The notes beneath the pieces were generated by a model, which saw only the letters and a list, made by a program, of their open reading frames with translations, made no database searches and was not told where the DNA came from. From Microthyrium microscopicum (Eukaryota), in NCBI GenBank assembly GCA_010405405.1, contig MU004231.1:3156401-3220400 (forward strand): a stretch of 64,000 bases of DNA, given 5' to 3'. The position numbers were made by a program, and so were the translations under genes. Positions 1-29,496 of the stretch are shown here, in pieces; the first letter of the stretch is position 1; the number at the start of each line of letters is the position of its first letter.

Positions 1-898
1 GTCAACAGATACGTCTAAATCAGCAGATGATGTATCTCAGGCCTTCACCAGACTTGCAGCAGTTGCTGGAACGTCCACTTGCCATCTGGCCATGAGCGCC
101 GAGCCTGTTTTCGTCAATGGAGTCTGGGGTCCTTATCGAGATGTCTTGATACCAGAATACTGGATGGCGGAAGGAGGACAGAGTGCAACAGGTGAACTAC
201 TGAAGCATGTTATCGAGACACACCCAGCGTATAACGATGCCGTTGAGGCAGCCAAAGCATCTGACTCCAACATCTACGACTTCCTCAACTCCCATCTTCA
301 AAAGACAGCAGAAAGCCAAAAAGCGCCAAACAAGAACGTCAGCTGGCTCGGACGACACATGTTCTTCTACGGCGATCTTTTCGGTAACCGATCTCCCATC
401 GCAGATCCAAACATGAAAGGTTCCATCGTCGGTCTCTCCTCCGACAAAAGCATCGATGCGTTAGCCCTCTTATACTATGGCGCCATGGAGTTTATCGCTC
501 TACAAACCAAACAAATAGTCGAGCAGATGAACGACTCTGGCCATGTAATACAAAGCATATTCATGAGTGGCTCTCTCTGCCAGAACGACATCCTGATGGA
601 TCTTATGAGTACTGCTTGCGATATGCCAGTACTCATACCCAAATACATTCACGCTGCCGTCGTCCATGGTGCCGCTATGCTGGGAGCTAAAGCCGCCAGT
701 CATGCAGATGGTGGCAAAGGAGAGCCGTTATGGGATATAATGGTTCGGATGAGCAAACCTGGTGATGCTGTGTATCCTAATAAGGATGCGGCAATGAAGA
801 AGCTGCTTGAGGCGAAATACAGGGTCTTTCTTGAGCAATGTGATCAGCAGCAAAAGTGGAGGAAGGATATCGATCAGGCTGTAGCTGATTGGAAATAA
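1..898 (+). CDS. FGGY-family carbohydrate kinase (D-ribulokinase-like), 3' part; 5' end outside window
   Basis: Frame is open from position 2 (…RLAAVAGTSTCHLAM). It carries GVWGPY, AEGGQSATG, GNRSPIADP and AVVHGAAMLG, typical of FGGY pentulose kinases. Stop TAA at 896-898. Confidence 0.9.
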   Translation, partial: STDTSKSADDVSQAFTRLAAVAGTSTCHLAMSAEPVFVNGVWGPYRDVLIPEYWMAEGGQSATGELLKHVIETHPAYNDAVEAAKASDSNIYDFLNSHLQKTAESQKAPNKNVSWLGRHMFFYGDLFGNRSPIADPNMKGSIVGLSSDKSIDALALLYYGAMEFIALQTKQIVEQMNDSGHVIQSIFMSGSLCQNDILMDLMSTACDMPVLIPKYIHAAVVHGAAMLGAKAASHADGGKGEPLWDIMVRMSKPGDAVYPNKDAAMKKLLEAKYRVFLEQCDQQQKWRKDIDQAVADWK

Positions 899-1393
899 CG
901 TGTGCTAGTGAGTCCAGCAATCCTTACATTTCAATATCCAAAGGGGTCCTCCAATGGTTGGGGGAATCCAGGCAACGATCAGTAGTTGACGTAGACAGTA
1001 TGCTTCAGGTTAGCGAGCTCTTTCATGCTCATCACCAAACCTTCTTCAAATAATATCCACCGTAGGCAAAGACTTGCAAAGCAATGCATTAAAGAAGAAC
1101 ACTTTTTCGTGTAGTATCATAGCACTAAAAGCTGTTACACACCAATACACCATGCCTTGCCCTCAAAGCCTCATAGCCATTACACCTTTAGCATCTATCG
1201 CCAAATTCCATGCTAATCATCACGTCGTGCTCGTCTTATCATTCACATACTTCAACGTCCGCAGTACCATACACATCAAATCGATCAATGCCATAAGAAC
1301 CACGGATATCCTTTCCCAACATGATTTTTGTGGCAACACAGTCGTTAAGACTATTCGTATTGCTTATGACCAAACGCTGCTATCGCAACAGGA

Positions 1394-3778
1394 CTACGCA
1401 CTGTCTCGCTCTCGGAACTTTGCGCGCTGGTTTGGAGGGACATAATTATCGCGATCCGGTTTTCGGTGCTTGGGACGAGAAGATCTATTGGCAAGAGCGA
1501 GTTGCATAGAAGCATCCTCTAGTCGAACATCGCGAGACAAATTGCCAACTTGAGCAGATCGTTGCGGTCGTAGAGGCACTTGAGCAGAAGTGCCAGTGTC
1601 TCCACCATCGACTTGGACCGCTTGACCGCCATTTTGAGCGACAAGGCTATTGTCTTGAGCAGGTGGATGAACATTTGGCTGCATCAGTTCAGCAACGTCT
1701 GGGATAGTACAACCTTGATATGAGATGGTAAAGCCACGGGCTTGCAGTCCACGAATCTCTTCAGCCACTTGGTCGTCATCTTTCTCATCAGGGTGAGGAC
1801 CGTTGCGACTATGCAAATCATCGTTTCCAGCTGGTGCGCGTACATCTCGTCGATCCCGAGGAGTATAGTTATCTAGTGGTATCGACACCACTTGCTCCTG
1901 TTGAAGTATTCCTCGAGCAGGACGATTGTGGTTTCTAGTTGCTTGGCTTAGACGAAGTCGAGGAGTAGTATTGTTTCCTGGTGGTGTGGGCACCACTTGC
2001 TCCTGCTGAACTACTTCCTGAGCAGGACGATCACGATTTCCAACCCGCTGGCGGTTGTCTCGTCGATTGCGAGGCGCCACGTTGCCTACATGAGCTGGTG
2101 CTCCGAATCGCTGTCCATTTGTTGATTGGGCAGGTAGATCTGTACCGTGCGCTACTGGCGCAGTGTTGGCCTTTTGGGTAGTTGTTATATCGGTAGCCCA
2201 TTTCGATTTCGACATTTCATTGGCAACTCGAGACGTAGGAGGATTGTTTGCATCAACCACCGGAGTAGCCCATTTCGACGTCGATAATCCGTTTGAATCT
2301 CGAGTAACAGCGATGGTCGCAGGGAAAGTTTTTGCCTGCACCTTCGAGGTAGCCCATCTTGATGTTGAGACTCCGTTCGCAGCTTGAGTAAGATCGTCAG
2401 AAGAAGGAGGCGCATCTACAGCCTCTGGAGAAGCCAACTGAGTAGGAACGACTGTATCCTGAGCTTGTAAAGTGACTTTCGCCATTTCGACAGCAATGCC
2501 ATTTGCACCTTCAGAGGCAGCCATTGGGGCGAGCAGAGCCGTAGTCATGACCTGAGCCGATAGACAACTATTGGTCCCATCAGGCTTGGCAGTCTCTCCG
2601 CTGGTAATAGCCTCCTGGGTTGGAGGAGCCGTATTTTCGTTTGGTGTGCTATCATTGGCAGTTTCGACAGGTTTGCTAGCCTCACTCTCGGCGGGACGAC
2701 GGCCACTAACAGCGGGAGCTTCTTGACTTAGAGAATCCGGTTGCTCGCAAACATCGTTGCTAGTCGACATAACATGTCGAATGTCGTTACCATCAGAAAC
2801 TCCTTGAGTCACGGGATTAGGTTGACCATTGGTTTCGTCGGATGCTGGGAGATCAGTTTCGCCTGTAGCTTCCACTGGAGCGGAAGGAGTCATTACTTTA
2901 GCTGTTGTAGCAACAGTGACTGTTCCGATAGCCTTGCCAATCTCATTCTTCGTATCTTGTCCTTGGGGAGCAATAGATTTAGCCCGAGCTAGGTCGTCGA
3001 GGTAGCCCATCTCGAACGCCAACTCGGCCTCCTCTGCCCAGTCGATTGCCTGTGGTTCCATGCTTATTTGGGTAGCTACATTGTGAGGAAACTTATCAGA
3101 CGATGGTAGCTCTTGGGCGGGCGCCTCGGGATTTGCTTCGGCGGAAGGACTATCAATTGGAGGTGACTTCTGAGTACACGCCTCGATCGCAGCAGCCTTC
3201 TGTGCGGCCTGTCGAATTTCGCGATCTTTTGCCACCATTTCCGCAGGCATTAGAGACTTGTCTGCCCATTTAGAAGCAAATATCGAGAGATGGCCATCTC
3301 GAACACACAGGTCCAACGCGGCGGCCAGAGGGGCTCCTCCACGTGTTGTAGGCTCTACTGCAGCGGCGTGCTGGGTGACCAAAGGAGGTATCGCAGGTCC
3401 CATTGCCGATTGAGATGACCCATTATTTGGTCGAGGCTGGCGTTGGAGATTAGATCTGGCGTTGTTGTGGTTCTCCCCGTGGCGGGCACGATTGGTTTGG
3501 GCATTATCGTTGTTCTCGTTGCGGCGGCCGCGCTTGGCTTGGTCGTTGGCGTGATTTTCGTCGCGGCGACCACGATTTTGCTGGCTATGGGCATTATATT
3601 CGTTGCGGCGATCACGATTGGCTTGGCTATTGTTGTAGATCTCGTCGCGGCGAGCACGATCAGGTTGGCTATTAGCATTGTTCTCGTCGCGGCGACCGTG
3701 ATGGTGTTGGCTATTCGCGCTGTTGCCATCGCGGCGACGATTGTGCCAGACATCGCCGTTTTTACGACGCTCCTCCAT
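1394..3778 (-). CDS. Hypothetical disordered protein, paralogue 1 of tandem triplet (794 aa)
   Basis: Long uninterrupted ORF. Shares the core MGPAIPPLVTQHA…LDLCVRDGHLSIFASKWADKSLMPAEMVAKDREIRQ with the ORFs at 4824-6974 and 8133-9668. TATA box and 5'-UTR intron upstream. Confidence 0.85.
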   Translation of the reverse strand: MEERRKNGDVWHNRRRDGNSANSQHHHGRRDENNANSQPDRARRDEIYNNSQANRDRRNEYNAHSQQNRGRRDENHANDQAKRGRRNENNDNAQTNRARHGENHNNARSNLQRQPRPNNGSSQSAMGPAIPPLVTQHAAAVEPTTRGGAPLAAALDLCVRDGHLSIFASKWADKSLMPAEMVAKDREIRQAAQKAAAIEACTQKSPPIDSPSAEANPEAPAQELPSSDKFPHNVATQISMEPQAIDWAEEAELAFEMGYLDDLARAKSIAPQGQDTKNEIGKAIGTVTVATTAKVMTPSAPVEATGETDLPASDETNGQPNPVTQGVSDGNDIRHVMSTSNDVCEQPDSLSQEAPAVSGRRPAESEASKPVETANDSTPNENTAPPTQEAITSGETAKPDGTNSCLSAQVMTTALLAPMAASEGANGIAVEMAKVTLQAQDTVVPTQLASPEAVDAPPSSDDLTQAANGVSTSRWATSKVQAKTFPATIAVTRDSNGLSTSKWATPVVDANNPPTSRVANEMSKSKWATDITTTQKANTAPVAHGTDLPAQSTNGQRFGAPAHVGNVAPRNRRDNRQRVGNRDRPAQEVVQQEQVVPTPPGNNTTPRLRLSQATRNHNRPARGILQQEQVVSIPLDNYTPRDRRDVRAPAGNDDLHSRNGPHPDEKDDDQVAEEIRGLQARGFTISYQGCTIPDVAELMQPNVHPPAQDNSLVAQNGGQAVQVDGGDTGTSAQVPLRPQRSAQVGNLSRDVRLEDASMQLALANRSSRPKHRKPDRDNYVPPNQRAKFRERDSA
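3470..3745 (-). repeat. Coding tandem repeat, ~39 nt/13 aa (N/R-rich, NANSQxxRxRRDE-like), ~7 degenerate copies
   Basis: Recurring tcg(t)cgcggcga/cgttgcggcg units on the + strand; visible in the translated N-terminus of the 794-aa ORF. Confidence 0.8.
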
Positions 3779-3985
3779 CTTATTTCGTTAGTTTATTGTA
3801 CCATTTAGACACTCTTCGTGATTGCTTACTATTTGTGTTGGTTTGGTTTGCTGATAGTTGGTCGATTTGTTGGATGGCTTTGGATGAGCAATAGAGAGAA
3901 AATCGAACAGTGCTTAGTTTCGGGCGTGGGAAAAGGTTGGCGAGGAGAGAAATGAGGTCCAGGAAGCAGAAGAAGGCAAATAAGG

Positions 3986-3993
3986 TATATATA
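3986..3993 (-). promoter_or_regulatory. TATA box of paralogue 1
   Basis: TATATATA followed (minus sense) by a pyrimidine-rich tract. Equivalent TATATA upstream of paralogues 2 (7184-7189) and 3 (9875-9880). Confidence 0.55.
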
Positions 3994-4104
3994 AGGACCG
4001 AGTAAGGTGCTAGCTCAGTAAGAGGTGCTCAGTGACTGTCACTTTCCTCACCTCACTGGCAATTTTCACGGGCTAAATGGCCAGCAACGAATAATAACAG
4101 GACT

Positions 4105-4217
4105 TCACTACCTTAAGAATGGTATGAGGTGCAATTGATACGTGTGGCGTTGTCAATATACCTCAATATCAAGCTGGAGGTGGAAATGAGCGAGTCTGAA
4201 CCATATACAGAAAGCGG
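4105..4217 (+). ncRNA. Conserved upstream block copy 1: candidate structured ncRNA or shared cis-regulatory module
   Basis: Collinear motifs ACCTTAAG…CAATTGATA…CCTCAATATC…GGAGGTGG…TCTGAACCATATAC…GAAAGC are shared with 7277-7400 and 9961-10085. CTACCTT(4108-14) pairs with GAGGTGG(4177-83), TGAGGTG with TACCTCA, and ATTGATA with TGTCAAT. Confidence 0.4.
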
Positions 4218-4823
4218 AAACAACAACATTTTTGACAAGCGCTCTGCGCCTGTCACATAGGTGATGGTACCAAAGACTTATACGCTCGGTAGCGAAGGCA
4301 TCAGGTGCCTTGATCAACATTTTGATAGGACTGTTACAACAGATCTCGGACTTTCATATTGGTGCGAGCTAACAGTAATGCCTTCACGAAGGACTTATCA
4401 GATACCTTAACGATTACTAGTACATTCTTGACCTTTATACTTGGTTTGTTTGCGAAAGCAAATCATTAAAGTCTCATTATTTCTAGCAAAGCTCAGCAAA
4501 CCTTTCGGTTTGGCTACCTAGGTAGGTAGCTAGGTACAAACACTTTTTCTGGCTGATGCCCGGCTTGTTATAGCTGGCGATCTCAACTCATCACTTTTCT
4601 TTTTGCGGGAAGTGGACAAACCGGTAGGTTGACGTCCGTTTTCCAGTTCTACGTTCTTCTTTCCTCGTTCTTACTTGGGCAATGTTCATCCCTAACCTTT
4701 TTAAAAGTTCATACCCCACATTTTGCTTTCTCTACCGATCTATCCTCATGATGCTGAATAGCGATTCACGATCCACACGCTGATAACAGCGTGATCATCA
4801 TACCAGTTTTCGATTACCCAAGG

Positions 4824-6974
4824 CTATAAGGACTTTGTGCGCGTATGTCGAGGAATGTACACCTGGGCATCTGAGCTTGGCTGTCTAGGTTGGGAGTTTT
4901 GCGGATTTTGGACAGACTCAATGGCGACGTCTCGATTTGCACGGTGAGAAGTGGTATTGAAAGGTTCGGACGGAACTGGACGCGCCGCAGTTGCTTCTTG
5001 TGTAGAGCATTCCACCCGATGTAGATGATTGAGACGGCCCTGACCCTGATTGCCTAGACGATTTTGTTGAGCCTGGTTACGATGGTGTGCTGGACGACCT
5101 CTATGACCCTGATGATTTGTGAAAGATTGTTGGCTCTGATGGGTAGGGAAAGCTTGTTGTCCCTGATGACTAGGTTGGGCTTGTCGGCTCTGATGAATAT
5201 GGAAAGCCTGTTGTCCCTGGTGAGAAGTGTGACTTACTTGGCTCCGATGAGTTGGGAAGGCGTGTTGTCCCCGATGATCTGGCCAAGCTTGTTGTCCTTG
5301 ATGAGTTCGGGAAGCTTGTTGACCCCGACGAGTGGGCCGAGCTTGCTGACCATGATGAAATGGGGAGCTTTGCTGACCCTGGTGAGTCGGCCGAGCTTGC
5401 TGACCAAGATTTGGACGAGCTTGATGGCCTCCATGGATTGATTGAGCCTGCTCGTTGTGATTGAAGCGGGTTCGTTGGCCACTCTGATTTCGAAGAGCTA
5501 GAGGTTCTGCAGAAATAATGGCCGTAGCACTTATATCATGTGGTCGAGACTCCTGTCGCGTGTCACGATCATGAGGAGTCAGCATAGCGGAAAGAGTGCC
5601 CGAGGCAGAGTTTGGTGTAGCAGTCATACCTGGCCGTCCAGATTGCGCATTACGATGGTCAGCAGTGGTCATTATAGCAGGTGTGCTCGGCGCTTGTGCC
5701 CATCTCGAACTCTCTATACCTGCGGAGGCACGAGGAGCCACATCTTCGGCAGGGCTAGACACTGCCTGAGGCTTTTGGATGGTGACTAGAGCATCAAGTT
5801 TAGGCAAGTTTGCCCACCAAGGTGCTTGAACGCGATTCTCTTTGACAGTGACCGTGGCTGGTAATGCCGGCAGATGTGTCCACCAAGGGTCCTGCGCGAT
5901 GACTCGAGCTTGGAGCATGATGTCGTCAGAAGAACCAGGAGCCGCCTGATGTTCTATAGTAGAGCCTACTGAAGACATTTCGAGAGAGTCTGCCCATGAT
6001 GGTTGCTCTACGTTGGAAGACACTCGAGTAGTCGTGCTGTGAGATGGATCAGCTGCTGCTTGATCCTCCTGGGGAGCCGCCTGGCCTTGGACAGATGTTT
6101 CTTCGGGTGATGATGAAACACCGGAGAGGGTTGCAATAGGCGGCGCTTCTAGTTGTTGAATAGTCTTTATAGGTGGCAAGTCTGGGTCATCTGCCCATCT
6201 CGATTTTCCTACTTCATAGAGAGCTTGAGTCGTCTTTTCAACAGAAGTTTCAAGCGATGTTTCGTGCTTTTGACCATCAAGTTGAACTGGAGGAGCTATG
6301 CTAACAGCTGGAAGTAGATTGGTAGCACCCAGCATAACAGACGGCATAGTGGCAACAGGCTCTGGTCGTTTTTGGTTCTTCTCGCGCTGTTGCTTCACTT
6401 CACGGTCTTTGGCAGCTATCTCGGCTGGCATCTTTGACTTATCTGCATACTTGGAGTCCCATATTCCAAGATGTGGATTTCTAACGCATGAGTCCATTGT
6501 GTCTACCAAATCAGCTCCTGCTCGAGTAGTGGGTGGTGGTCCAATGGGAGCGTGGCCAGTGACCAGCGGAGGTCTCACTGGACCCAGTGCTGCTTCTGAG
6601 GTGGGATCTTGAGCTGGCGCTCGGTGGCTAAGATTAGCTTCGTTCAAGGTACGACGGAAAACATGGTCGTTGCGGCGGTAGGAATTTGCGCCGTTGAAAT
6701 TACTGCCTGTGTTATTGTTGCGAGGACCACGGCCGCGATGGTTGACATTTGTTTCTTGAGGGGCGGGAGGTACAGATGGTGCTCGGAAGGCAGGATTACG
6801 GTCGACAGACGTCTGGTCAGGTACATTGCCAATATGATTGGAGTTGTTGCTGTTTCGACTGAAGTTGTCGCCAATTTGATCGAAGCTGCCGTGGTTATTG
6901 GTGTTGTTGCGAGCACCGCGCCCACCATTACGCCTATATCGCCAGTGACCGTTATTGTTGTGGCCGCTCGCCAT
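4824..6974 (-). CDS. Hypothetical disordered protein, paralogue 2 of tandem triplet (716 aa)
   Basis: Long ORF with the core LGPVRPPLVTGHA…MDSCVRNPHLGIWDSKYADKSKMPAEIAAKDREVKQ, SRWA motifs and C-terminal YIPRHTR. Confidence 0.85.
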   Translation of the reverse strand: MASGHNNNGHWRYRRNGGRGARNNTNNHGSFDQIGDNFSRNSNNSNHIGNVPDQTSVDRNPAFRAPSVPPAPQETNVNHRGRGPRNNNTGSNFNGANSYRRNDHVFRRTLNEANLSHRAPAQDPTSEAALGPVRPPLVTGHAPIGPPPTTRAGADLVDTMDSCVRNPHLGIWDSKYADKSKMPAEIAAKDREVKQQREKNQKRPEPVATMPSVMLGATNLLPAVSIAPPVQLDGQKHETSLETSVEKTTQALYEVGKSRWADDPDLPPIKTIQQLEAPPIATLSGVSSSPEETSVQGQAAPQEDQAAADPSHSTTTRVSSNVEQPSWADSLEMSSVGSTIEHQAAPGSSDDIMLQARVIAQDPWWTHLPALPATVTVKENRVQAPWWANLPKLDALVTIQKPQAVSSPAEDVAPRASAGIESSRWAQAPSTPAIMTTADHRNAQSGRPGMTATPNSASGTLSAMLTPHDRDTRQESRPHDISATAIISAEPLALRNQSGQRTRFNHNEQAQSIHGGHQARPNLGQQARPTHQGQQSSPFHHGQQARPTRRGQQASRTHQGQQAWPDHRGQHAFPTHRSQVSHTSHQGQQAFHIHQSRQAQPSHQGQQAFPTHQSQQSFTNHQGHRGRPAHHRNQAQQNRLGNQGQGRLNHLHRVECSTQEATAARPVPSEPFNTTSHRANRDVAIESVQNPQNSQPRQPSSDAQVYIPRHTRTKSL
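5085..5435 (-). repeat. Coding tandem repeat, ~27 nt/9 aa (HQGQQAxPT-like), ~12 degenerate copies
   Basis: Recurring gcttg(c/t)tg(a/t)ccctg(a/g)tg units; H/Q-rich repeat in the translation. Confidence 0.8.
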
Positions 6975-7276
6975 CTAGATTTTGTCCGTCTCCGGTATTT
7001 GGACTGAGAAAGATGACTTACTTTGCGTGTGAAGTATATTTGTGATGCGATGAGCGTGCGATGTGAGCTGATGCGGTTCAAGAATATAGAGTGGTTGAAG
7101 AGAGTATTGGCGGTGCGGAAAGGCGAGGAAGAGGTAGAGGAAGAAGAAGTGGAAGGCGAGGAGATAGAGAAAGGCCAAAGGATTATATACAAGGACGGCG
7201 ACTGTTAGAATCGAATCGAACCATCACTGAGAGGTTACTAGCGCCAATCTAACCGAACGAAAGCAAAACAAGCATA

Positions 7277-7400
7277 GGCTACCTTAAGAAACACATTCGG
7301 TCAATTGATATATAACGAGCGGCAGTAACGACTACTGAGAGCACCTCGATATCAGCCAGGAGGTGGCTGTTGTAGATGATCTAACCCATATACGGAAGCA
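7277..7400 (+). ncRNA. Conserved upstream block copy 2
   Basis: Same ordered motifs as copy 1. GGCTACCTT(7277-85) pairs with GAGGTGGCT(7360-68), TTGATAT(7305-11) with ATATCAG(7349-55), and apical CAGTA with TACTG. Confidence 0.4.
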
Positions 7401-8132
7401 GTATTCGGTCAACAGATATTCTACTCTTGGCCATCCGCTAGACCACCTGGTACTCGCTGGATATTCACAATGAACCGAGACAAACCGGCTTATAGGCCTT
7501 GGAGTATGCTCGTAAGACGAGAATCACATTATCCTCCGAAGCAAAGGCAAAATGAACCAGCTTCGAAGCTCTCATAATGATGTACCAGGGATATATTCGC
7601 TCTTTATGCTCCTTGTATGTTTGCGAGCTACCACAGTTTGCGCTGTGGTCAACGACTTCTAGTGGCAACTGGTAGATAAGGCTATTGACAAACAATCTCC
7701 TCAAACTATGTCAGACTTTTCGACGATGGTCTTCTGTCTTGGGCAGGCAATGTTTAGGTTAGTGTTCGACTTGCATTCATTCGATAAGGTAGGTCACCAT
7801 ATAAAATATGTATCCCAAGTTATATCGCGCTCTAGGTATCATCCAAGGTTGAAGACTTTTGACTTATTATATCATTATTTCGTACTGCCCATGCCTCGGA
7901 ACGACTGGTTCTTTCAGTTGGTGCTTCGCTTCACCTTTTCATATTCATCACACTCTAGCCGTCTATCAAGAAGTAACCTTTGATTGCAAAGACGCAGTTG
8001 CACCATCCACGAAGTTCTAGCCTTCTCTTTACCTCCATCATCCGAGGTGCTCAGATCATTCTTCGTCTTCCATTCCATGCCAATCATTGTAGGCCAATCG
8101 CCATCCCTTCATCGAATCCTTTCCCCTTGTCA

Positions 8133-9668
8133 CTACTTCTCTTCCTCTCGAGTCTGTGGAGGCATTTTCGGAGGAACGTAGACTGAAGCATTCGGTCTAC
8201 CTTGATTCTGTCGTCGACCTCCTGCCACAGGACCAGCTAACGCACCTTCACCTTGACCAGGAGCAGGATTTGAGTTGGCGTTCATGTTACGACGGTGAGG
8301 AGGTGGTGTCAGACGTCCCTGGCGATTTGTTTGGCGGGAGCGACCATAATTTGTAGTCTGAGATGGGTGGTTTGGCACTCGCGCAACGGCCGTCATAGGA
8401 GCGTTGGCATGAGGCTGAGCCATGTGAGGAGCTCGAGGCTGACGCTGCTGGCCTACTGCTTGGGCATGACGAGAAGTATTCACAGGCCGTAATTGGTTGT
8501 TGCGCTGATCTCGAGAGGTGTTTCTAGTGCCTTGAGTCAGATCGCTAGAATGAGCGGGTTGTGTATGCGGCGGCTGGGTAAAGCCTGCGTTGTTGCGAGG
8601 CTGGAAATGATAATCAGCGCCGTTTCGACGATGGAAGTGATTGTTGGCGTTCGTTGCAGGAGTTGCAGCTGCATGTCGTGAGCGCTGTTGCATTCCACGG
8701 TTCTTGTCGACAGTAACGGTAGGCGCATTTGCCCATCTAGACGCGGCGAGGCCAGTGGGACCTTGAGCAACAGGACCTTGAGTAACGGGACCTTGAGCAA
8801 TGGGACCTTGAGCAACGGGACCTTGAGCAGGCAAATCGAGTAAGGAGTCCGGAGGTTTGATGTCGGAATCCGCAGTAGCATCTGCCCCTCGCGAAGTCGG
8901 GACAAAAGGCGCAGCTTGAGCAGATAAGTTGCCAGTATAGAGAGCGAAGATCGAGTCCGATTCGATAGGTTCGTCCGACCATCTGAAAGATGCGGCACGG
9001 GAGGATGCGTGCACCGTCTCTCTACCCGAGACGCCAGGAACGTTGATGGTCGGCTCTTTGGTCTCGTCCGCTAAGCTCAAAGCAGCAATATCAGGGGAAA
9101 CTACAGCCGAGTCCTGATCGAAGGATCCAATCTGTGTCTGTGGCTCTGTAGAAGTCACATTGGCAGAGCTAGCTTCCGACTGAGATGACTTAGTAACGTC
9201 GACGAGAGGCGCGAGAGAAGCAGTTGGCTCAAGAGAAGCAACTGGTCTTAGAGAAGCAGTTGGGTCTGTGGGAGCTACAGGGTCCTTTGCAGCGACTGAT
9301 TCTTTGGGAACGAGTGGATCTGCTGGAACGACTGGATCTGTTGAAGTGGCGGACGCAGCCAGTTTCTTCGCTCGCTCCTGCTGAATCTCGCGGTCTTTGG
9401 CTACCATCTCCGCCGGCATCTTAGTCTTGTCGGCATACCTAGAGGCGAATATGCCTAGATGCGGGTCGCGCACACAGTTGTCCAAAGTCTCCGTCAAGGA
9501 CTCTCCTGTACGGATAGTTGGCGGAGGACCGGGTGGTGCGTGCTGGGTCACCAGAGGGGGCGTGGCGGGCCCCATGGTTGGTCGCGTATTTGGAGCTGGT
9601 TGATGATTTGAGTTGTCGGGTCGTTTCCAGTTGCGGCGGGTTGGCTTCTTGGTACTACGGTCTTCCAT
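8133..9668 (-). CDS. Hypothetical disordered protein, paralogue 3 of tandem triplet (511 aa)
   Basis: ORF with the core MGPATPPLVTQHA…LDNCVRDPHLGIFASRYADKTKMPAEMVAKDREIQQ, GLAASRWA and C-terminal YVPPKM. Confidence 0.85.
   Translation of the reverse strand: MEDRSTKKPTRRNWKRPDNSNHQPAPNTRPTMGPATPPLVTQHAPPGPPPTIRTGESLTETLDNCVRDPHLGIFASRYADKTKMPAEMVAKDREIQQERAKKLAASATSTDPVVPADPLVPKESVAAKDPVAPTDPTASLRPVASLEPTASLAPLVDVTKSSQSEASSANVTSTEPQTQIGSFDQDSAVVSPDIAALSLADETKEPTINVPGVSGRETVHASSRAASFRWSDEPIESDSIFALYTGNLSAQAAPFVPTSRGADATADSDIKPPDSLLDLPAQGPVAQGPIAQGPVTQGPVAQGPTGLAASRWANAPTVTVDKNRGMQQRSRHAAATPATNANNHFHRRNGADYHFQPRNNAGFTQPPHTQPAHSSDLTQGTRNTSRDQRNNQLRPVNTSRHAQAVGQQRQPRAPHMAQPHANAPMTAVARVPNHPSQTTNYGRSRQTNRQGRLTPPPHRRNMNANSNPAPGQGEGALAGPVAGGRRQNQGRPNASVYVPPKMPPQTREEEK
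8755..8830 (-). repeat. Coding 15-nt tandem repeat (AQGPV/I) x5
   Basis: ggaccttgag(c/t)a repeated five times at 15-nt spacing. Confidence 0.9.
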
Positions 9669-9960
9669 CTAGTTTTGTCAATCTGAGTTGTCAAGAGACG
9701 GCTTTGGGCGCTTACTATACGGATACGCAATATTTAGAACTTTCTGATCTGTGAATGCTATAAAGCGTTTAATCGAAGTCGGCGATATCAAAAGCTGGCG
9801 GAAAGGGTTGAAGAGGTGGTTGAAGGTGTTGAAGAGAAAGCGAAAAGTAAAGTAAGAGAGAAAGTCAAGCGGAGTATATAGAGGCTAAGAGAGGTAGGTC
9901 ACTGACAACTTTCGAGCCACAATGACCCAGAGCTAACCAAATGAAGCAAAGTCAGAACTG

Positions 9961-10085
9961 TTCACCTTAAGCAGAGTATGAGGTGCAATGAGGTAAATTG
10001 AGGTGCCGCGAGTGCGGTTATATAAGCCTGGATACTGGCATGGAGGTGGCCGATATATTCAGTCTGAGCCATGTCAAGAAAGCGA
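9961..10085 (+). ncRNA. Conserved upstream block copy 3
   Basis: Same ordered motifs (ACCTTAAG, GTATGAGGTGCAAT, CCTGGATAC, GGAGGTGG, AGTCTGAGCCAT, AGAAAGCG). TCACCTT(9962-68) pairs with GAGGTGG(10043-49) and AGTAT with ATACT; apical GCCGC-gagt-GCGGT. Confidence 0.4.
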
Positions 10086-11120
10086 TATTTACCCAGCAAG
10101 AGCTCACGTAGATGAGTTAGCTAGGTAAGTCTCATCGTAGGACTCCCACGAAATGCAAAGAAAACGATGTACTTGTGGACACCTGCAAGAGCAATATATG
10201 GTATGAATGGCATTGTCACTCTGGTTTATTGGGAAAGAAGGATCATCACAGATGCTTTGACGAGTATCCGCATGAGAGATTAAGTAAATAATCGCACCTC
10301 TCTGTGAAGGGAAACTGTTCAGTCTAGGTAAATCTCTAAGGTAGTCTTCATGTTTTCATGTCATAGCAAGACATACTTAGTTTGCGTCGTCTCAGCAACA
10401 TCGAGCAATTGATATGGTGTCGCTGAACGCAAACATTCTCTTCAAAGTATGCTAGACATCTCAAGGATATTCCTCTGTCTCAAGCAAACAGGTTCTCCGG
10501 TCCTTGTTCGACATGCTCATTCATTAGGTAAGTCCCCATTCATAAACTCTTCCGCTGTATAAGCCCGATGTGGGACATGTTTCCATATCCTGCCAATGTG
10601 ACATAATGCACGTAAGAACGCCACATGCCTTTCGAGGGAATGGTCAGGGAAGGATCGGGGGAGGAACTGGCCCTGATATCGGTGTGGATCATCGCTATTC
10701 GTCAGAGGAGCTTCGTAGGCCGAGAACGTGGTAGCTGGAGCTGCTGTTGTGGGCAAGACATGACAGCGAGAGCAATCGTTAGTATGAGGCCCTGGGAGGC
10801 GAGTATGCATGTCAAAGCGGCGTGGATATTGACACTTTATGATACAAAAAACTGTGTCTGTAACTTGTCTGCCATTTTAGATGTAGCGAAGTACGATCAC
10901 AGGCTTGCGGCCTTTCAGAACATCAGTCCATTATACAAGACTCGTGCTTCAGTTCTAAAGTGAATTATCCGTGATCACAAAAAAGGAGGCGCACATACGA
11001 TTTCCAAACAGGTGAGTATTTCGCATTCTTCGTGCTAGCAAATAACGAGCTCCGTCCCAAAACGTCCCGTTGCAATACATAAAAGAGTTTAGTGCCATTA
11101 ATATTACGTCCGTCCTACAA

Positions 11121-11887
11121 CTAAGCAAACACATGCACTGTTGTGCCTCCAGACTTCTTCCAGGTAGCAACAGTGACACCGCACTTGCCGCACTTGTGGA
11201 CAACGTCCTTGAAACCGTCTATTAGGTATGGAATGCATGGCATGAGGAGTACGAGGCAGAAACCGAGAGCCCAGAGACTAGAAAGACAGTTAGTTTATGC
11301 GCTACCACTTTATGATATGGTGTATCTTACTGTGTGCAGTCTCCACTGACGCGAGAAGTGTTGGTCATGCCTCTTTGCTTGCAAGATGGGCAATCTATGG
11401 GTGCGCTGGATTCTGAAAGAGTCTGGATTGGCACAGCGCTTTGGAAAACGGAGGTCTGTGGCTGCATCATCACTGGCTGTTGTTGCATCATGTGAGGTTG
11501 CTGGTACGCCATTTGTGGTTGTTGCTGCTGCTGCATCATGGGCTGCTGGTATTGTTGTTGTGGGTGCATCATGGGAGCACCAGTTGGATGACCTTGCATA
11601 GGTTGCTGAGCATACATAGGCTGCTGGCCTTGGGGATAGCCTTGTGGTTGCATTTGAGGGTGCTGCATCTGTGGTGGGTATTGGGGTTGCTGGGCCATAG
11701 GCTGTGGAGTGCCTGGGCCGACCTCAGTGACATATGCTGGTGGTTCTGGCGATGATTGTTAGTGATGATTCTCGCGATAATTTGCGACAGCGCGCAAGAC
11801 CCCTATTCAGCCTGATGAGAGTTTGAAAGTGAAATGGATGTCTTGCGCGTGCGATCATTTAGGAATATACTTACGAGCTTTCTCCAT
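11121..11887 (-). CDS. LITAF-domain zinc-ribbon protein (3 exons: 11887-11875, 11745-11331, 11277-11121)
   Basis: Spliced product MEKAQPPAY…Q/P-rich…APIDCPSC…HLWALGFCLVLLMPCIPY…KDVVHKCGKCG. Two CxxC knuckles flank a hydrophobic stretch and there is an N-terminal PPxY. Introns are canonical GT-AG with ctaac branch points. Confidence 0.9.
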
Positions 11888-12754
11888 TTTGAAACTTGTT
11901 ATTGATTATCGAAGTTAGTTGTATGTACGGACGTTATGTAACGAGTGTGAGGGATGGGGAGAAGTTGCAGAAAGTGGTGGTGGAGTTGGGTCCGACATAT
12001 ACTCTGGACCACCACGCTCGCACAGGAGAATAGAATTGGGTTCCAGCCATTGCGCTAGATAGGAGAAAGCCACGACCCTGAAGTCCGTAGAAAAACGAGG
12101 CTGAGGCTCGTCGCGAAAATGGTGTTGGGCGTGGTATTGACGACTGGGATTGGATGGAGTTGAGGACACTGGCCCCTTGCAGGCCTTTGCAGGACACTAC
12201 TGCTTCCCGTGAGCCTGGATTGGCTTGGACAAGCTCTCGATCAGCCACGCGATGGTGACAGGCGAATAAGGCTCCTATTAAGACGAGAGAAAGGAATATC
12301 CCAGCGCCTGCGTTATGCTTCCTTTGTTAAGACCGTTCGAGAACAGTGGAGGCATCACGCTGCCACAAATCGGGCTAGCCACAACCTCGTTGTACTCCTC
12401 AAGAGATCCCAAGACGTGCAAGTTTCGCGCTCGACCGGTCAAGTTGCTTAAAGAGTCAAACACTGCGCCCCTTTGCGTGAGTTGTGGATATGCGAAGCGA
12501 GAAGTTACAATTTTAATTTAGCAACACTTCTGCGGGGTGAATATGCACCTTCTGAACTGGTCTGTAGTCTTGCAATTCACTCGAGCGGCACGGCTGGGGG
12601 ATCCGACGTCTGTTCATCTTGATCTGGGCCCATTTGATTGAAACATTGATAAGCAGAAACAGATGATGGGAGATTGAATCTCATCAAATATTTAGTCAAT
12701 GAGATTCAGATAAAGCGCCCGTTTCACACCAAGATGCGGCTGAATGGACAAGTA

Positions 12755-14548
12755 ACGTGCCTCACCCAGATCTCGGCCTACCCAGATCTCAGCCACCCCA
12801 AAAAGGAATTTCAGAAATAAACACTGTAGCATAACACAACCAAAACACAATATAATTAAATAATTTAAATTGATAAATTAAGCTTGAGTTTAATGCCTAA
12901 ATCTGCCTTTTTTAGTTTTTTAATAACTCTTGCTAATACAGTTAAAATATTGTTTAACTAGTTTATAGCATAGTTAAGCATAATCTAATTCTTATCGTCC
13001 ATTTTAGCATTATAATTTCTCTTCTTTCTTTAAGCTTATTTAGAAGTAGCAAATAGCATAGCTACTTAGCTTTAAAGAGAAATTACTTGTTATTATAAAG
13101 CATAGTTCTTTACAAAGATCTAGCTTAATTCTTACTAAACTAAGCACATAATAACTCGCTTTAATCTTAGTATAAATAGAAGCCTTTCCAAAGCTAGAAT
13201 TAAAGCCAAAAAAGTCAAAATAGGTATATTTTATATAGGAACTAACTCTTAGGAATTTTCTATTATCTTAGGGATATGTTATAAGACTATATATTGATTA
13301 ATAGGCTAAATTCCTATTACTATAAATAATAAAACGATATTTACCTTTATAAAAGCTAATTTCCTTGCTTCTATATATATTTAAATAAAGATTCTTTTCT
13401 AAATTAGTACTAAAGAAGATTTAAGAAAAGAATAGTTAAGTTAAGTTAAAAATTTGCGTTTTAAAGGTCCAAAAATGTTAACATCTAATAGCTACGTACG
13501 ATAAGAAGAATATAGCAATAAATAGACTAATTAGATATAGTTAATAATATATTTAAAGCGAAACTTAGGCGTAGCATAACTACTATGATTATTATAGATT
13601 AAAATTTACTATTCCTTAGGATTTAAAGGGGCGGTTTACAATATAAAGATAAGATTAAGCTAGTCTTTGCCTAACTAATTTAACGTCTAGCTATTAGTCG
13701 TAGTAATAAAACGATACTTTAAAGATTTAAGTTCTATACGTAAATTTAGTAGGAACTAATAATCTAAGATAGATTTACCTTTATAAATAGCTAGGAAAGA
13801 TATAAGATCTCTAAGAGTAGAGATTATCTCTAAGATTAAGATATTCTTATAACTACTATTCTCTATAATAAAATAGTTACCTTTCTTATAGTTTTTAGTA
13901 GTCTACCTACTTACTATAATTACTTCTTTGCTAGAGATTCCTAAGCACATTCTAGTCTCGTTAAAGTTATAAATATTAGCTAGTTTAACCTTAAGGGATA
14001 AAATTACTCTTTTAAAATAATTAAAATAGTTATTAACAGCATTAAAAGTAGTATCATTAACTCTTTATTTATTAATTCAACGAGCTAGAATACAAACGAC
14101 TTTAGGATTTCTTTATTTAAATAATTAGATCTAATTTTAGCCTAAAAAGGCACTTAGGATTCGCTACTAAAGAATGCCTTAAGTAAAATCTTTAATTTAA
14201 ATATATATAGAAGTACAACTAGCTAATTCCTCACTTTTAATTTAGTTATAAACTTTAGTTTTCTTCGTAATAGAAAGTTTTTAATATAAGGAATATAAGG
14301 TTTTATATAACTCTTATCTAGCAATTTAATCTTAAAGAGTAGATCTTAGAACTCCGTAAGCTTTAGCTACTACACAAACGGACTTATATTCTTAATTTTC
14401 TAAAGCTATAATAGCAGCTTAGATGTCTTCCTCATTCACTATTTAAATTGCAAAAGAAACGCATTTAAATTAGTAGAGTTACAGTAGTATTTAGTTATTT
14501 AGAAAAATGGCCGAGAAGTGGGTTGGCCGAGATCTAGGTAGGGCACGT
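12755..14548 (-). mobile_element. RIP-inactivated Fot1/pogo-type (Tc1/mariner) DNA transposon, 1794 bp
   Basis: ~41-bp imperfect TIRs starting ACGTGCC, with TA duplications at 12753-54 and 14549-50. Minus-strand relic motifs: HTH (AKAYGVLRSTL), YNFNET (from YNFDET) and *LLDVNIFGPLK (from QPLDVGIFGPLK). AT-rich with TAA/TAG stops. Confidence 0.92.
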
Positions 14549-15431
14549 TAATTGGCGCAAATAGAACCGCCAAGAGAGTTGGTTGCCCGACTTGGCTCTT
14601 CAAGTTCCACAGGATTTAGCCTTAGGTAGGCTGAGTTTGGAAAAGGAAAGAGGACAAGATTGAAGTTGATGCACAGCCATAATTACTTAATCTTCCCACT
14701 CTTGACGTTCCATATCGCTTGTTTGGCCGGGAATCAGACATTTTGCAGGCCAGAACAGTCATCTTCCGATTCCATTACTTCACGACCTTCGAGATTGTGT
14801 ACCTCGCGGCTCTATATCACAATCAAACCTTAGTTTCGGCCACAAGCTCTCATCTAGTGCGATGTCTACCATCAAATTCATTGGGCGACATCGCAGTGAT
14901 GGGAGCTCGCTTGTCATTTCATCTATTTGTAACTCTTGAAAAACAACAACCAGAGTACAAAAATGGATGGATATTGATATGGTTATCAAGACCCTTATGA
15001 GCGCTTCTGGTATGGACCAGCATTATAGATAATTGGTAAGGATCGCTCTGTCTGACAGGTCGCCAAGCAGTGCCCTGCAGTGATCTACAAACTGCAGATC
15101 TCGTTTCACTTTTCAGCCTTTCAGCCTTATGCATATTACTTGCAACAGTTCAAGGTTATACGGCTCCACATCATCAATTTTGATCTGAATATATGCAGAA
15201 TTTGGACCGCATTCTGTTCGACAATACCGAAACAATTCCAATCAAAACAATATCATGAACAACAATCTTTCAAACAAGTTCATCTCCACAATTCATCCTC
15301 ACAACATATAACTTTCCAACAAACCATTTTCCAGACATAGATTCCTGCAATTTTTGACCACACATCATCCCAAACGTACCCGACACCCTACCCAATTCTC
15401 CTCTAATATCAGCCTGGGGTTCTCCAACCCC

Positions 15432-16889: not shown

Positions 16890-19800
16890 CTAATAATCCA
16901 CCACTCTCGCCAGCATCCTAACATCCTCTGGCACCTCCTCAACCCCCATAATGCCCAATCCCAGCACATCGCCCCAGAAGAACTTGGCCCGATCAAGACT
17001 ATACGCCAAGTAATCGAACCCTTCGCCTTCCTCGCCATCCTCCTCCTTTTCTTCTGCGGCCACAGGATTGTCGGCGGCAACAATATCATCACTAGCTACA
17101 GCACTCTCCCCAAGCTCAACAACCTCCTTCTTCCCAGCCTCCACGCGTGGTTCCGCACGCGGTGTCGCATCGCCAGTCTCCTCCAGCGGGCTATCTCGTC
17201 TATTCTCTGTACCTTCATCACGCGCACGCAGATACGGGCTCTTTAGATCCTCAAAGGCCGGCATGCCTTCAATCTTGGCTTGCACGATGCCCCACATGAC
17301 CCACTGCGCAGAATTGACACCGCGCCAGATGCGTGTTTCCCAACGCAGTTGATCGAGGAGTGCGCGTCGGGCATCTTCGTCTTCAGGTAGTGGTGGTGGT
17401 TCGCGCAGAGATGCGGCGCTAGATGCTGGCGCAGATGCATTGGAGCTTGGCGCGCGGGCCTCAAGCATAAGAGAGGACAACATGTTGAGAGCGGTGGGTG
17501 TGGAGGAGGACATGTTTGGCGTGGATGGCGGGCTGCCGGCGATGGATGACAAGGAGGCGGTGGAGAGACGGTTTGATGGTGCAGCCGGTGGGAAGGATGG
17601 GCGATGAGAGACATAGGCCGAGAGAAAGTTGTTTTGTTCGGCAGGGGTGGGATATTTGGAGACTGAGCAGGCAAAGGAGGTGTCTGCGTTGTGGTAATCG
17701 TAGCACCATTCAGTAAAGTGATTTGCGAATTCGAGACCGGGGACATTGGCGTTGGCGTATTCAAAGTCAATGACAATGAGACGCTTGTGTTCGTTAGCGG
17801 GCAGTGGGCTACCTCCTTCTTGGATGAGACGTAAAATGTTGCCGTATTGAGCCTGAAAGGTGTAAGCACGTTGTCTTCTATAAATATCACGAATGACCAT
17901 ACATCATTATGAGCAAACACTAATCGATCGTTCACGCCCGATTTTCCATGGTACTGCTCTTCTAGCCACTTTCGATACCGTAGCAAAGCTTCCTTGAAGA
18001 GCTTGAAATCCGAGCCAACAAGATGACCATGTACAGACAAATTCTTAATAGCTGGAGTACTCTTTGCCATCTCTCCTTCAACCCATGCTACAATGCGTTC
18101 ACAGCGTGCCATCCACTTGTCAATATTCTGCCATACAAACGGTCCTGCTTGGATTTCTGCATTGAGGAGTTCTATTCCGTCATGTAGTTCGCGCATCCGT
18201 TTGGCAATCTGTCTGGAGATATCAGGCTTGCTCAACTCCTCTGCATTCAATGGTCTAGCATTGAAAAATTCTTCAAATCTGCCGTTGAGGAATGTACCGA
18301 GGAGGCGTGGACCAATTCGTTTTCGAGCCAACCGCCGCAAAACAGCAAGCTCGCTTTCGCGGTCAATCAGATGATCAACCTGTGCTCCGTAAATGCGAAG
18401 CAGTAGCCTTGCAGGCTTTGATTTCAGTGAAGAGCCAGGTCGGTCTGATGAGGAGCTCTCAGGAATGTCCTTGGGCGGGTTGACTTCGTACACTGCATTT
18501 GTTAACGCACCGCTGAGGCGTTCAACACCAATAGTGTCACTCTTGTCCAGTTCGATCCTACGCCAACCCTTGATCTTGAGAGTATGAGTTAGTCGAACTA
18601 TTTCGTATTTGAACGTTCTCCAAGCATCTTGCTCTCTTGTAGAGTACGAGCGGGTGAGATCTGGTCTAGATTCACTAGCCTCAGTCAGTCCACCAGTATA
18701 CGAGAGGGTTTTACGATTGTCCAAGATAACGTCGCAAGATGGGACTTGGTGCTCGCTTTCGTAGAAATCGGAGTCAGATCCAATGGTAGCGCTCGAGTGT
18801 CTGTTGAGTTTTCGTATGGAATGAGAGCTTTTGTTTGATGCCGCATAATTCGGAGCGAACAAAGTCATATTGCGCTCTAGGATTTCCTGCAGCATGTCGA
18901 GCGCAGTAGAACCTTCTGATTCAGCATCCGAAGGCCTTCTGCTAGATGGAAGAGATGTAACCCCTTCAGCGTTCTCGTCATCCACAACAGCTGATGAGAT
19001 GGAGCTTTCTGTAGGCTGCGGTGCCTCCTTTTTCGGAGCTGGAAGCTTGGCGAGTGTGGCTGCAGCTTTTTTCTTCTGCTTCTTGGAAGATCGACGAGAT
19101 TTCTCCTTCTGGATCCATTTCATAAGGTCACGATACGACAAATGGTAGTGGCGGCCACTGTGGTGACCAGACGTACTTGAAGGTCCAGCTGCTTCTCCAG
19201 CCCGGCTGGCCGCCACCGTAGACGAATATGTAGCGTCATGACCAGATCTTGGTGCAGCTTGAGGAGCAGGTTGCGGAATTTTGAGTAAATCTGCCGGGGT
19301 TCTAGCTCGAAGGAACTCAATAGACGGACGCGAACCGATTCGTCGAATGCTGGCTCGGTACTGCGGTTGTCGCGCTGCAGAAGCCCGAGTATCAAGATTG
19401 AAATTTTGCTCGCTGTCTGTGTCAACTTCCCTGGTAGGACCGGGCATCATGGAACTGATATTGTCCGGTTCGGCAATGGATACAGCTGGACATGGTTAGT
19501 AATGAAGAAAAAGACGAATGGGTGTTTCTCTCTCATAAATAAGGCCAGATGAGCAGTTTTGAAAAGACAATTTTTTAATCAGACGAAGCAGCTGGTGACC
19601 TTGTTAGAGAAGCTATGGGATCTGCAATCTCCAAAGAAATGGTTTAAACTCGATGGGCAATTAGGGTCTCGTTAAGCCGAGAGTAAAGTTGAAGTTGAAC
19701 CCCAAATAAACTCTTGGGACTGGGGAAACTCGATAACTAGATCCTCGAAGCCACCCTTGCTCTTCCAGTTACCAAATAAGTTCATCGTCCGGAGCCATGC

Positions 19801-28735: not shown

Positions 28736-29275
28736 AAAGATAAGAATTTAGCTAGGATTCTATGAGATTAGTGATTATGCCTACTAATTTTTATAGTAAT
28801 TCTAGTTAATTCTTAAGTAAATTCTGTTCTTAGCTATAGTTTAGAGATATATTTACTAAGTCTTAAATTTTTAGAGATTAGATATATTTCTACTAGATTT
28901 AGCGTTAGCTAGACTAGTTACTATAAACTAGACCTAAGTTTAGGATAGTTTATTATTAAGTTGGATTTTATATATAGCTTATAGTTAGTATAATTATAAA
29001 GCTTTATATAAGAAGTAAATAAGAATCTACTATCTAGCTAGTCTAATAATATTAGCTACTAGATTACCTCTAAAACTCTTTTAGAGTCTTTAGTAAAGAA
29101 TATAATATATTTCTTAGTTTACTCTTTTAGGGTGGCTTAGAAACGAATATTTATATATTTTTAAAGAAATACTTTTTATATTAAAAAGTTATTTTCTTTT
29201 TATTAAATTAATTTATCTTTATTCTATTTTCTTTATTATATTATTAGATAATATAATAAATATTAATTTACTCTA

Positions 29276-29496
29276 CTACCTAAGTAAGTAGTAAAACTAC
29301 TAGAAGGTTAAAGTAGTTTAGTTCTACTTAGATAGTTAGTCTACCTAAGTAAGTAGTAAAACTGCTAGAAGGTTAAAGTAGTTTAGTTCTACTTGGATAG
29401 TTTAAAGTAGTTTAGTTCTACTTAGATAGTTAGTCTACCTAAGTAAGTAGTAAAACTACTAGATGGTTAAAGTAGTTTAGTTCTACTTAGATAGTT
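29276..29496. repeat. 65-bp tandem repeat (~3.4 copies) inside the large transposon
   Basis: ctacctaagtaagtagtaaaact…gttctacttagatagtt starting at 29276, 29341 and 29435. Confidence 0.9.

Follow-up and report, generated by a model that had tools for sequence, protein, structure and literature searches.

Three old tandem genes for probably disordered, apparently co-regulated proteins in the filamentous fungus Microthyrium microscopicum

How three long genes of common ancestry can lie side by side in a fungus whose DNA carries the marks left by repeat-induced point mutation (RIP), and what proteins composed largely of low-complexity sequence might do there, is the question raised by a locus of Microthyrium microscopicum. 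The window analysed, meaning the whole 64-kb stretch taken from contig MU004231.1 (assembly GCA_010405405.1, positions 3,156,401 to 3,220,400) and numbered from its first base, contains three open reading frames (ORFs), here called g1, g2 and g3. In the reading that we favour, with a probability of roughly 0.65, these are anciently duplicated tandem paralogs of a lineage-restricted family, and their products are disordered, co-regulated, multivalent adaptors of a RIP-competent filamentous fungus. The genes have the following extents:

1394..3778, minus strand: ORF of g1, 794 aa, isoelectric point (pI) 6.1, 80% polar or disorder-promoting residues (ORF reading, composition)
4824..6974, minus strand: ORF of g2, 716 aa, pI 10.0, identical to the database protein P0001 (100% over 716 aa; ORF reading, database match)
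8133..9668, minus strand: ORF of g3, 511 aa, pI 9.9 (ORF reading, composition)

All three are co-oriented and, with the standard code, each is read as a single coding exon, the whole group lying within 8.3 kb; in this respect the initial annotation, which had described three co-oriented ORFs of these lengths without coding introns, was correct. Alignment of the full-length proteins gave identities to g1 of 26% for g2 and 27% for g3, and nearly all of its contiguous invariant columns correspond to g1 residues 125-194. Shared sequence, adjacency, common orientation and the common promoter, leader and intron layout described below together mark the three genes as tandem paralogs.

The segment responsible for most of this similarity is a core of ~62 aa, which was delimited by alignment, tblastn and a hidden Markov model (HMM):

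3218..3400, minus strand: core of g1, aa 127-187 (alignment, tblastn, HMM)
6399..6584, minus strand: core of g2, aa 131-192 (alignment, tblastn, HMM)
9387..9572, minus strand: core of g3, aa 33-94 (alignment, tblastn, HMM)

When the three cores are aligned, 36 of the 78 columns are invariant, and these include C, H and D residues, as had been stated earlier for a core of ~65 aa whose coordinates differ from ours by a few bases. The copies recover one another in tblastn with E-values from 1e-22 to 1e-31, and tblastn and a six-frame HMM scan agree in finding exactly three of them in the window, the next-best matches having E 0.4 and E 4, respectively. An AlphaFold2 (AF2) model places helices at positions 31-40, 46-51 and 59-77 of the core alignment; being derived from an alignment of 3 sequences, it is a weak model, with a mean predicted local distance difference test score (pLDDT) of 66.7 and a predicted template modelling score (pTM) of 0.27. 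Going by this model, the core may represent either a little helical unit whose folding accompanies binding or a run of linear motifs.

Searches for relatives recovered nothing beyond the family itself. No Pfam family was found at E<=1 for any of the three proteins, in keeping with the initial annotation, which did not recognise the core as a named domain, and a match to a characterised Pfam family, the outcome named there in advance as speaking against its reading, was thus not seen at this threshold. A profile of the three cores matched none of the 177,635 distinct sequences of the PDB at E<=10. With the weak core model, Foldseek gave no match in the PDB at E<=10, and VIA-align placed none of 48,161 chains at Z>=5 (best Z 3.1). 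The whole g3 protein, run against a set of 5.8 billion clusters, returned nothing at E<=1e-3, its 8000 candidates being swamped by low-complexity words, while its residues 28-105 gave 7 candidates, none of them at E<=0.01. The three-core profile run against longer proteins had P0001, that is g2 itself, as its sole match. A phmmer search with the g3 core against 1.84 billion representatives yielded 4 matches at E<=1e-3, one of which is again g2; the other three, proteins of 2017, 1138 and 6874 aa, are internally repetitive, cover residues 29-68, 14-35 and 29-61 of the 78-residue query (two of them via 7 repeated stretches) and were read as repeat-inflated chance matches. In metagenome contigs, none of 353 pattern matches was confirmed by tblastn, and a degenerate pattern of 51 nt for the core, which recovers the three copies of the window, had no match there. 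The ESM Atlas offered no usable feature match for the g3 core or the whole of g2, and its structure rows reached a query-normalised template modelling (TM) score of at most 0.44, a few values of 0.52-0.67 obtained with normalisation by the short target carrying little meaning. It should be noted that g1 and g3 are absent from two large protein sets in which g2 is present, and that the Atlas has g2 and g3; this genome, and presumably that of fungi at large, is therefore covered only partly, which makes the lack of a detected ortholog weak evidence. The proposal of a novel family consequently stands as far as no relative was found outside the window, and is tempered by the small number of eukaryote proteins in the databases searched.

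The divergence of the three cores provides the principal clue to the age of the family. The proportion of synonymous differences (pS) is saturated in all three pairs (0.746, 0.755 and 0.805), against proportions of nonsynonymous differences (pN) of 0.251, 0.217 and 0.197, and the ratio of nonsynonymous to synonymous substitution rates (dN/dS) is 0.076 in the sole pair with a computable dS, all of these being measurements on the core between three paralogs of one genome. In this comparison of paralogs pN is far below pS, as is typical of purifying selection, and a dN/dS near 1, which had been named beforehand as the adverse outcome, was not seen. In the three core pairs, 35 of 61, 37 of 61 and 42 of 62 third codon positions differ, with transitions and transversions in the proportions 19:16, 15:22 and 17:25 (51:63 in sum). 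RIP makes C:G-to-T:A transitions, and a third-position spectrum that is not biased to transitions thus argues that the differences did not arise in a RIP-type burst. The terms old and selected, which the initial annotation had applied to the triplet, accordingly hold (pS 0.75-0.80 against pN 0.20-0.25, with no transition bias), and the comparison supports the conclusion that the duplication is old and that the core is under purifying selection.

The base composition of the locus points in the same direction. The usual RIP cut-offs lie at ~0.89 for the TpA/ApT index and ~1.03 for the (CpA+TpG)/(ApC+GpT) index. In the three genes these indices are 0.60-0.72 and 1.16-1.36, respectively, with a GC content of 0.52-0.55, and in the rest of the window between 35 and 64 kb they are 0.69 and 1.33 with a GC content of 0.48; by dinucleotide indices and GC content, then, the RIP signature is absent from the three genes. 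Two AT-rich blocks in the window, at 12900-14600 and 28300-34300, have TpA/ApT values of 1.54 and 1.73, (CpA+TpG)/(ApC+GpT) values of 0.47 and 0.39 and GC contents of 0.26 and 0.28; they are presumably degraded repeats. At the DNA level g1 and g3 share 199 bp at 65% and g2 and g3 share 101 bp at 74%, and no similarity between g1 and g2 was detected at E<=1e-3. As RIP targets newly duplicated sequences sharing homology (described in a passage of PMC11628664), the present copies are too divergent and should no longer be its targets, so that only their survival through an early phase, when they were still similar, needs explaining: either the duplication predates efficient RIP in this lineage, or the copies escaped it. 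The earlier argument, that RIP normally destroys linked duplicates and that a surviving GC-normal triplet is unusual, can hence be retained in part. RIP-like AT-rich blocks do occur in the window and the genes are GC-normal, but the survival of copies now so dissimilar is less unusual than was supposed.

These data also bear on a scenario in which the duplication is recent, RIP mutated the fresh copies heavily and selection rescued the core only. One passage of PMC11628664 presents RIP as a source of very high mutation rates, with duplicates that may be modified later, and the presence of RIP-like blocks in the same window would fit such a history. The genes themselves, however, have neither the dinucleotide signature and lowered GC content nor the excess of transitions that it would entail. 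Heavy RIP breaks reading frames with stop codons, and here three frames of 511-794 codons are open. A recent origin with RIP is, on this evidence, highly improbable.

Beyond the core, the three units have a conserved upstream module in common. In each of them the order is that of a conserved block, TATATA, a pyrimidine-rich leader, a putative intron of the form GTAAG...(A/T)AG and the ATG, as follows:

3992..4210, minus strand: upstream module of g1, with ATGG.T.AGA, CCACCTCC (4176-4183), TC.ATTG, CTTAAGGT (4110-4117) and CAGTGA (alignment)
7190..7395, minus strand: upstream module of g2, with CCACCTCC (7359-7366) and CTTAAGGT (7281-7288) (alignment)
9881..10075, minus strand: upstream module of g3, with CCACCTCC (10042-10049) and CTTAAGGT (9964-9971) (alignment)
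3830..3991, minus strand: TATATA of g1 (3986-3991) and G-poor, pyrimidine-rich leader without ATG
7022..7189, minus strand: TATATA of g2 (7184-7189) and leader without ATG
9716..9880, minus strand: TATATA of g3 (9875-9880) and leader without ATG
3779..3829, minus strand: putative 51-nt intron of the 5' untranslated region (5'-UTR) of g1, GTAAGC...ACTAAC...AAG, containing the only ATG of the leader (sequence signals only)
6975..7021, minus strand: putative 47-nt 5'-UTR intron of g2, GTAAGT...TAG (sequence signals only)
9669..9715, minus strand: putative 47-nt 5'-UTR intron of g3, GTAAGC...TAG (sequence signals only)

In the alignment of the three upstream regions, 151 of 554 columns are invariant, and the uninterrupted invariant stretches measure 8, 8, 6 and 6 nt, namely CCACCTCC, CTTAAGGT, TATATA and AGTAAG. 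By comparison, 30 alignments of shuffled copies have a mean of 77 invariant columns, a maximum of 100 and a longest run of 4. For the downstream flanks 62 of 434 columns are invariant and no run exceeds 2 nt, so that the three flanks have no conserved block. The composite pattern CCACCTCC-N(40-70)-ATTG-N(5-30)-CTTAAGGT has 3 matches in the 64 kb, each gene being preceded by one of them, and none of 100 shuffles contains it. Taken alone, CCACCTCC occurs 7 times in the window where 1.12 are expected (three in the modules, one in the coding sequence of g3 and three elsewhere) and CTTAAGGT 6 times where 2.19 are expected (three in the modules and three in or next to AT-rich stretches). The copy of CCACCTCC at 8299-8306 on the minus strand, within a proline-rich stretch of the g3 ORF, is probably unrelated to the promoter blocks.

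The spacing of the remaining signals is comparably uniform. TATATA lies 212-215 nt upstream of each ATG; the stretch from TATA to GTAAG measures 161-165 nt, has 8-10% G and is 73-81% pyrimidine in its first 100 nt; and the putative introns end in all three units at the base directly before the ATG. The leaders contain no ATG in 490 nt, a situation that arose in 255 of 10,000 composition-matched shuffles, and the 300 nt upstream of each TATA contain 3, 5 and 3 of them. By these signals, which include those expected of a fungal RNA polymerase II core promoter and of a 5'-UTR intron with GT...AG borders and a branch-site-like element, the upstream layout matches a polymerase II promoter of fungal type and a putative 5'-UTR intron, kept since the duplication. 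An ATG is also invariant within ATGG.T.AGA (approx. 4201-4204, 7389-7392 and 10072-10075); the frames that open there run, by hand count, for ~11, 2 and 36 codons and are not conserved, which makes a conserved upstream peptide unlikely.

With synonymous sites saturated, the surviving 8-mers of the promoter must be under selection, and the likeliest reason for their conservation would be that they are shared transcription-factor sites. Co-regulation of the three genes can thus reasonably be inferred from the common upstream module. A possible pointer to the class of factor comes from the rice blast fungus, since the 8-mer ranked first for the C2H2 zinc-finger protein MoHTR2 on a protein-binding array is identical in every letter to CCACCTCC (reported in an excerpt of PMC7672089). 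The identity makes a zinc-finger factor a plausible reader of the block, but according to the same excerpt MoHTR2 is secreted, acts as an effector on promoters of rice and is no regulator of fungal genes, and the match may be coincidence. The string CCACCTCC also occurs in a portion of PMC12886408, and the string GGAGGTGG in a portion of PMC2890656.

A different interpretation of the block, and one implied by the initial annotation when it described the block as hairpin-forming and the whole as a protein(+RNA) system, is that it represents a structured non-coding RNA or RNA element working with each protein. Its retention in three units despite saturated synonymous sites could be taken in this sense, and some local hairpin can be drawn in each copy. 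The sense strands of the three blocks, though, fold no better than their shuffles (z-scores -0.91, +0.61 and -1.09, with 200 shuffles each). Their consensus fold has -7.8 kcal/mol over 259 columns and a covariation term of +0.34, which is no gain; its helices pair invariant columns and are uninformative for or against structure, while the hairpins of the variable parts differ in sequence and position between copies. Rfam had no match within the three blocks and none above the gathering score in 1-12000. A sub-threshold match to mir-7939, the sole one in that interval, sits elsewhere, 3' of the g1 stop (1299-1359, minus strand; 25.5 bits against 75, E 0.11), and is most likely due to chance. 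Moreover, the block lies upstream of TATA, where ATGs are frequent (11 in 900 nt), and they are absent downstream of it, a distribution that fits untranscribed promoter DNA. Of the earlier description of the unit, the order of block, TATATA, pyrimidine tract, 5'-UTR intron and ATG is therefore recovered from sequence signals, and the hairpin and RNA components are not; a functional RNA in this position has very little chance of being the explanation.

The predicted proteins are alike in character. Polar or disorder-promoting residues make up 77-80% of g1-g3, the grand average of hydropathy (GRAVY) is -0.87 to -1.02, and the maximum over 19-aa windows is at most 1.31, so that neither a signal peptide nor a membrane segment is evident. 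The charge layout, with a basic N-terminus, an acidic middle and a basic C-terminus, is common to all three. The ESM Atlas contains g2 and g3 letter for letter, with a mean pLDDT of 0.41 and 0.40, respectively; the public gene models are thus equal to these two ORFs, and disorder is predicted for the proteins. In addition, every gene has a tandem repeat of its own:

3474..3725, minus strand: g1-specific tandem repeat, 6 x 42 nt, encoding 14-aa units rich in R/D/E/N (repeat analysis)
5107..5410, minus strand: g2-specific tandem repeat, ~9 x 27 nt, encoding 9-aa units rich in H/Q/G (repeat analysis)
8753..8830, minus strand: g3-specific tandem repeat, ~5 x 15 nt, encoding 5-aa units (repeat analysis)

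Low-complexity composition, together with the lack of any homolog outside the window in the searches made, might suggest that the frames are chance or decaying ones in repetitive DNA and encode no functional protein. This is scarcely credible in view of three open frames of 511-794 codons, a core in which pN is far below pS, and a conserved promoter followed by an ATG-free leader and conserved intron signals.

A short motif centred on tryptophan, which the initial annotation had not listed, also recurs in g1-g3. Eight of their 19 Trp residues lie in the pattern [RK]W[AS], a number reached in 0 of 10,000 residue shuffles (maximum 4), and there are 7 copies of the longer form S[RK]WA, where shuffles have 0.021 on average. 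The residue that follows Trp in the eight motifs is Ala in seven and Ser in one, and position -5 is hydrophobic in all eight. One copy of the motif lies inside the core, as S[KR][WY]ADK, and each protein has one to three further S[RK]WA copies outside it; the motifs of the tails thus resemble repeated copies of part of the core. In the window's stop-to-stop ORFs of 150 aa or more, S[RK]W[AS] is limited to the three family members. A second short motif, Y[VI]P, is found in all three proteins 10-17 residues from the C-terminus. The individual occurrences are these:

2195..2362, minus strand: three S[RK]WA motifs of g1, aa 473-476, 501-504 and 525-528, on a 72/84-nt repeat (coordinates derived from residue numbers)
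6192..6203, minus strand: SRWA of g2, aa 258-261 (motif scan)
5697-5708, minus strand: second SRWA of g2, aa 423-426 (motif scan)
8730..8741, minus strand: SRWA of g3, aa 310-313 (motif scan)
aa 228-231 of g3, minus strand: the variant FRWS (motif scan)
1436..1444, minus strand: Y[VI]P motif of g1, aa 779-781 (motif scan)
4851-4859, minus strand: Y[VI]P motif of g2, aa 706-708 (motif scan)
8172-8180, minus strand: Y[VI]P motif of g3, aa 497-499 (motif scan)
8895..8924, minus strand: relaxed match of g3 to poly(A)-binding protein-interacting motif 2 (PAM2), L[NS]xxAxx[FWY]xP, aa 248-257 (in g3 only; at least one match in 30 of 5000 shuffles)

Two known motif classes invite comparison, and with them the possibility that the proteins are adaptors linked to messenger ribonucleoproteins (mRNPs) or splicing, their Trp and aromatic motifs being divergent forms either of the ligand motif (ULM) of the U2AF homology motif (UHM) or of PAM2 and its tryptophan variant PAM2w, both of them ligands of the MLLE domain in poly(A)-binding protein. 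RNA-granule proteins commonly have disordered tracts rich in R/N/Q, which would agree with such a role. The ULM is defined by an invariant Trp preceded by positively charged residues (so stated in an excerpt of PMC4192513), and the eight Trp with R or K at -1 conform to this; in both cases, as far as that excerpt goes, a short linear motif in a disordered region is centred on Trp with a basic residue before it. The differences are that an acidic or amide residue follows the Trp of the ULM in place of the Ala or Ser found here, and that most of the present copies have one basic residue and no basic run. The pattern [RK]-x(0,3)-W-[DN]-[EQ] used in PMC10033318 consequently has 0 matches in g1-g3, because Ala or Ser follows Trp.

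PAM2 is given in a part of PMC7356810 as LNxxAxEFxP, with a Trp variant LNxxAxx[F/W], and resembles the present motif, within what that part describes, in being an aromatic-anchored peptide of disordered proteins for which a form with Trp is known. The relaxed match in g3 adds to the likeness, as does the half-motif Axx[FY]xP, which lies near the C-terminus in g2 and g3 and has 3 matches in all (66 of 5000 shuffles reached 3). Strict PAM2 and LNxxAxx[FW], however, have 0 matches in g1-g3; the hydrophobic anchor is at -7 in PAM2w and at -5 here; and the relaxed match occurs in one paralog only and is not common to all. With nothing in Pfam at E<=1 to link the proteins to either class, the resemblance, judged from sequence, would be one in kind (an aromatic anchor on a disordered chain), with membership not established, and a direct mRNP or splicing connection by way of these known motifs is doubtful. 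Among the papers searched, none on an SRWA/SKWA tryptophan motif was found. It is conceivable, if speculative and on balance unlikely, that S[RK]WA is an undescribed class of Trp-anchored linear motif and the core a new interaction module, the two defining a new family of multivalent disordered adaptors. One conserved enhancer would in that case drive the three members in a fixed ratio, and their docking site would be on a conserved cellular machine, e.g. a component of mRNPs or of splicing that has a pocket for Trp.

The reading of the locus as an old family of co-regulated adaptors can be put together from these elements as follows. Each gene would encode an intracellular, almost wholly disordered protein, in which the only constrained elements would be the ~62-aa helical core near the N-terminus, the copies of S[RK]WA and the C-terminal Y[VI]P, whereas the rest would evolve freely, in part by way of the gene-specific tandem repeats, while keeping its basic-acidic-basic layout. 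The proteins would probably serve as scaffolds or adaptors of a multivalent kind: hydrophobic pockets of one or few partner proteins would take up the core and the repeated Trp motifs, and tracts rich in R/N/Q/H could add weak multivalent contacts. Expression would be governed by a promoter made up of an upstream activating block with the invariant 8-mers, a TATA at fixed distance, a CT-rich, ATG-free leader and an intron ending at -1. As one such architecture has been kept since the duplication, it is most likely that a common transcription factor, or a common set of them, activates all three genes together.

Several points weigh against this picture. The Trp motif was defined post hoc, so that the shuffle tests overstate its significance, and its three copies in g1 share the 72/84-nt internal repeat and are not independent events. 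The Trp motif does not fit the published ULM and PAM2 patterns. The AF2 model being of low to middling confidence, what is here called a core may amount to several linear motifs in a row and not to a domain. Finally, no ortholog was found, and the constraint is hence known from three paralogs of one genome.

The surroundings of the locus are as the initial annotation had them, with an FGGY gene on one side and a LITAF gene on the other: Pfam searches identify an FGGY-kinase C-terminal domain at 2-895 (E 1.9e-59) and a LITAF-like zinc ribbon at 11330-11698, the latter a weak match (E 5e-4) because an intron cuts the domain. A perfect inverted repeat of 8+8 nt with a CC spacer lies at 4513-4530 on the minus strand, ~300 nt 3' of the g2 stop; it could belong to the 3' end of g2 and has no counterpart downstream of g1 or g3. 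Elsewhere in the window, two overlapping long open frames at 37970-39103 and 39051-40700 on the minus strand (378 and 550 aa), without a Pfam family, the core or the Trp motif, are probably a single gene that an intron or a change of frame interrupts. Further long open frames of 506 and 565 aa without a Pfam match lie at 21272-22789 and 56919-58613 (minus strand). A choline/ethanolamine kinase at 16893-19495 on the minus strand is split over two frames (Pfam positions 1-172 and 170-300), which an intron or a change of frame could explain.

A parallel to the locus is provided by Neurospora, in which a passage of PMC11628664 describes lineage-specific gene clusters with rare duplicates and gives RIP as the reason for their rarity. 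As in the clusters of that passage, poorly annotated genes are found here clustered and duplicated despite RIP, with no homolog in the databases that we searched. Against what the passage reports, the duplication here is old, with saturated synonymous sites; the paralogs keep a shared promoter module; and the locus lies between genes of housekeeping type, the FGGY kinase and the LITAF-like gene, a telomere-proximal position not being evident.

Lineage-restricted (orphan) families of disordered proteins are common in fungal genomes, and for this reason the locus by itself overturns nothing; it represents one case of an old duplicate family that coexists with RIP. If the reading of the three genes as co-regulated adaptors is true, however, the locus would constitute a compact natural experiment, in which divergence is saturated outside the core, the four-residue Trp motif and the promoter 8-mers, so that the sequence itself marks the residues and bases that matter. 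The family would then be easy to dissect, and could yield both a new pair of peptide motif and partner and a new transcription-factor site.

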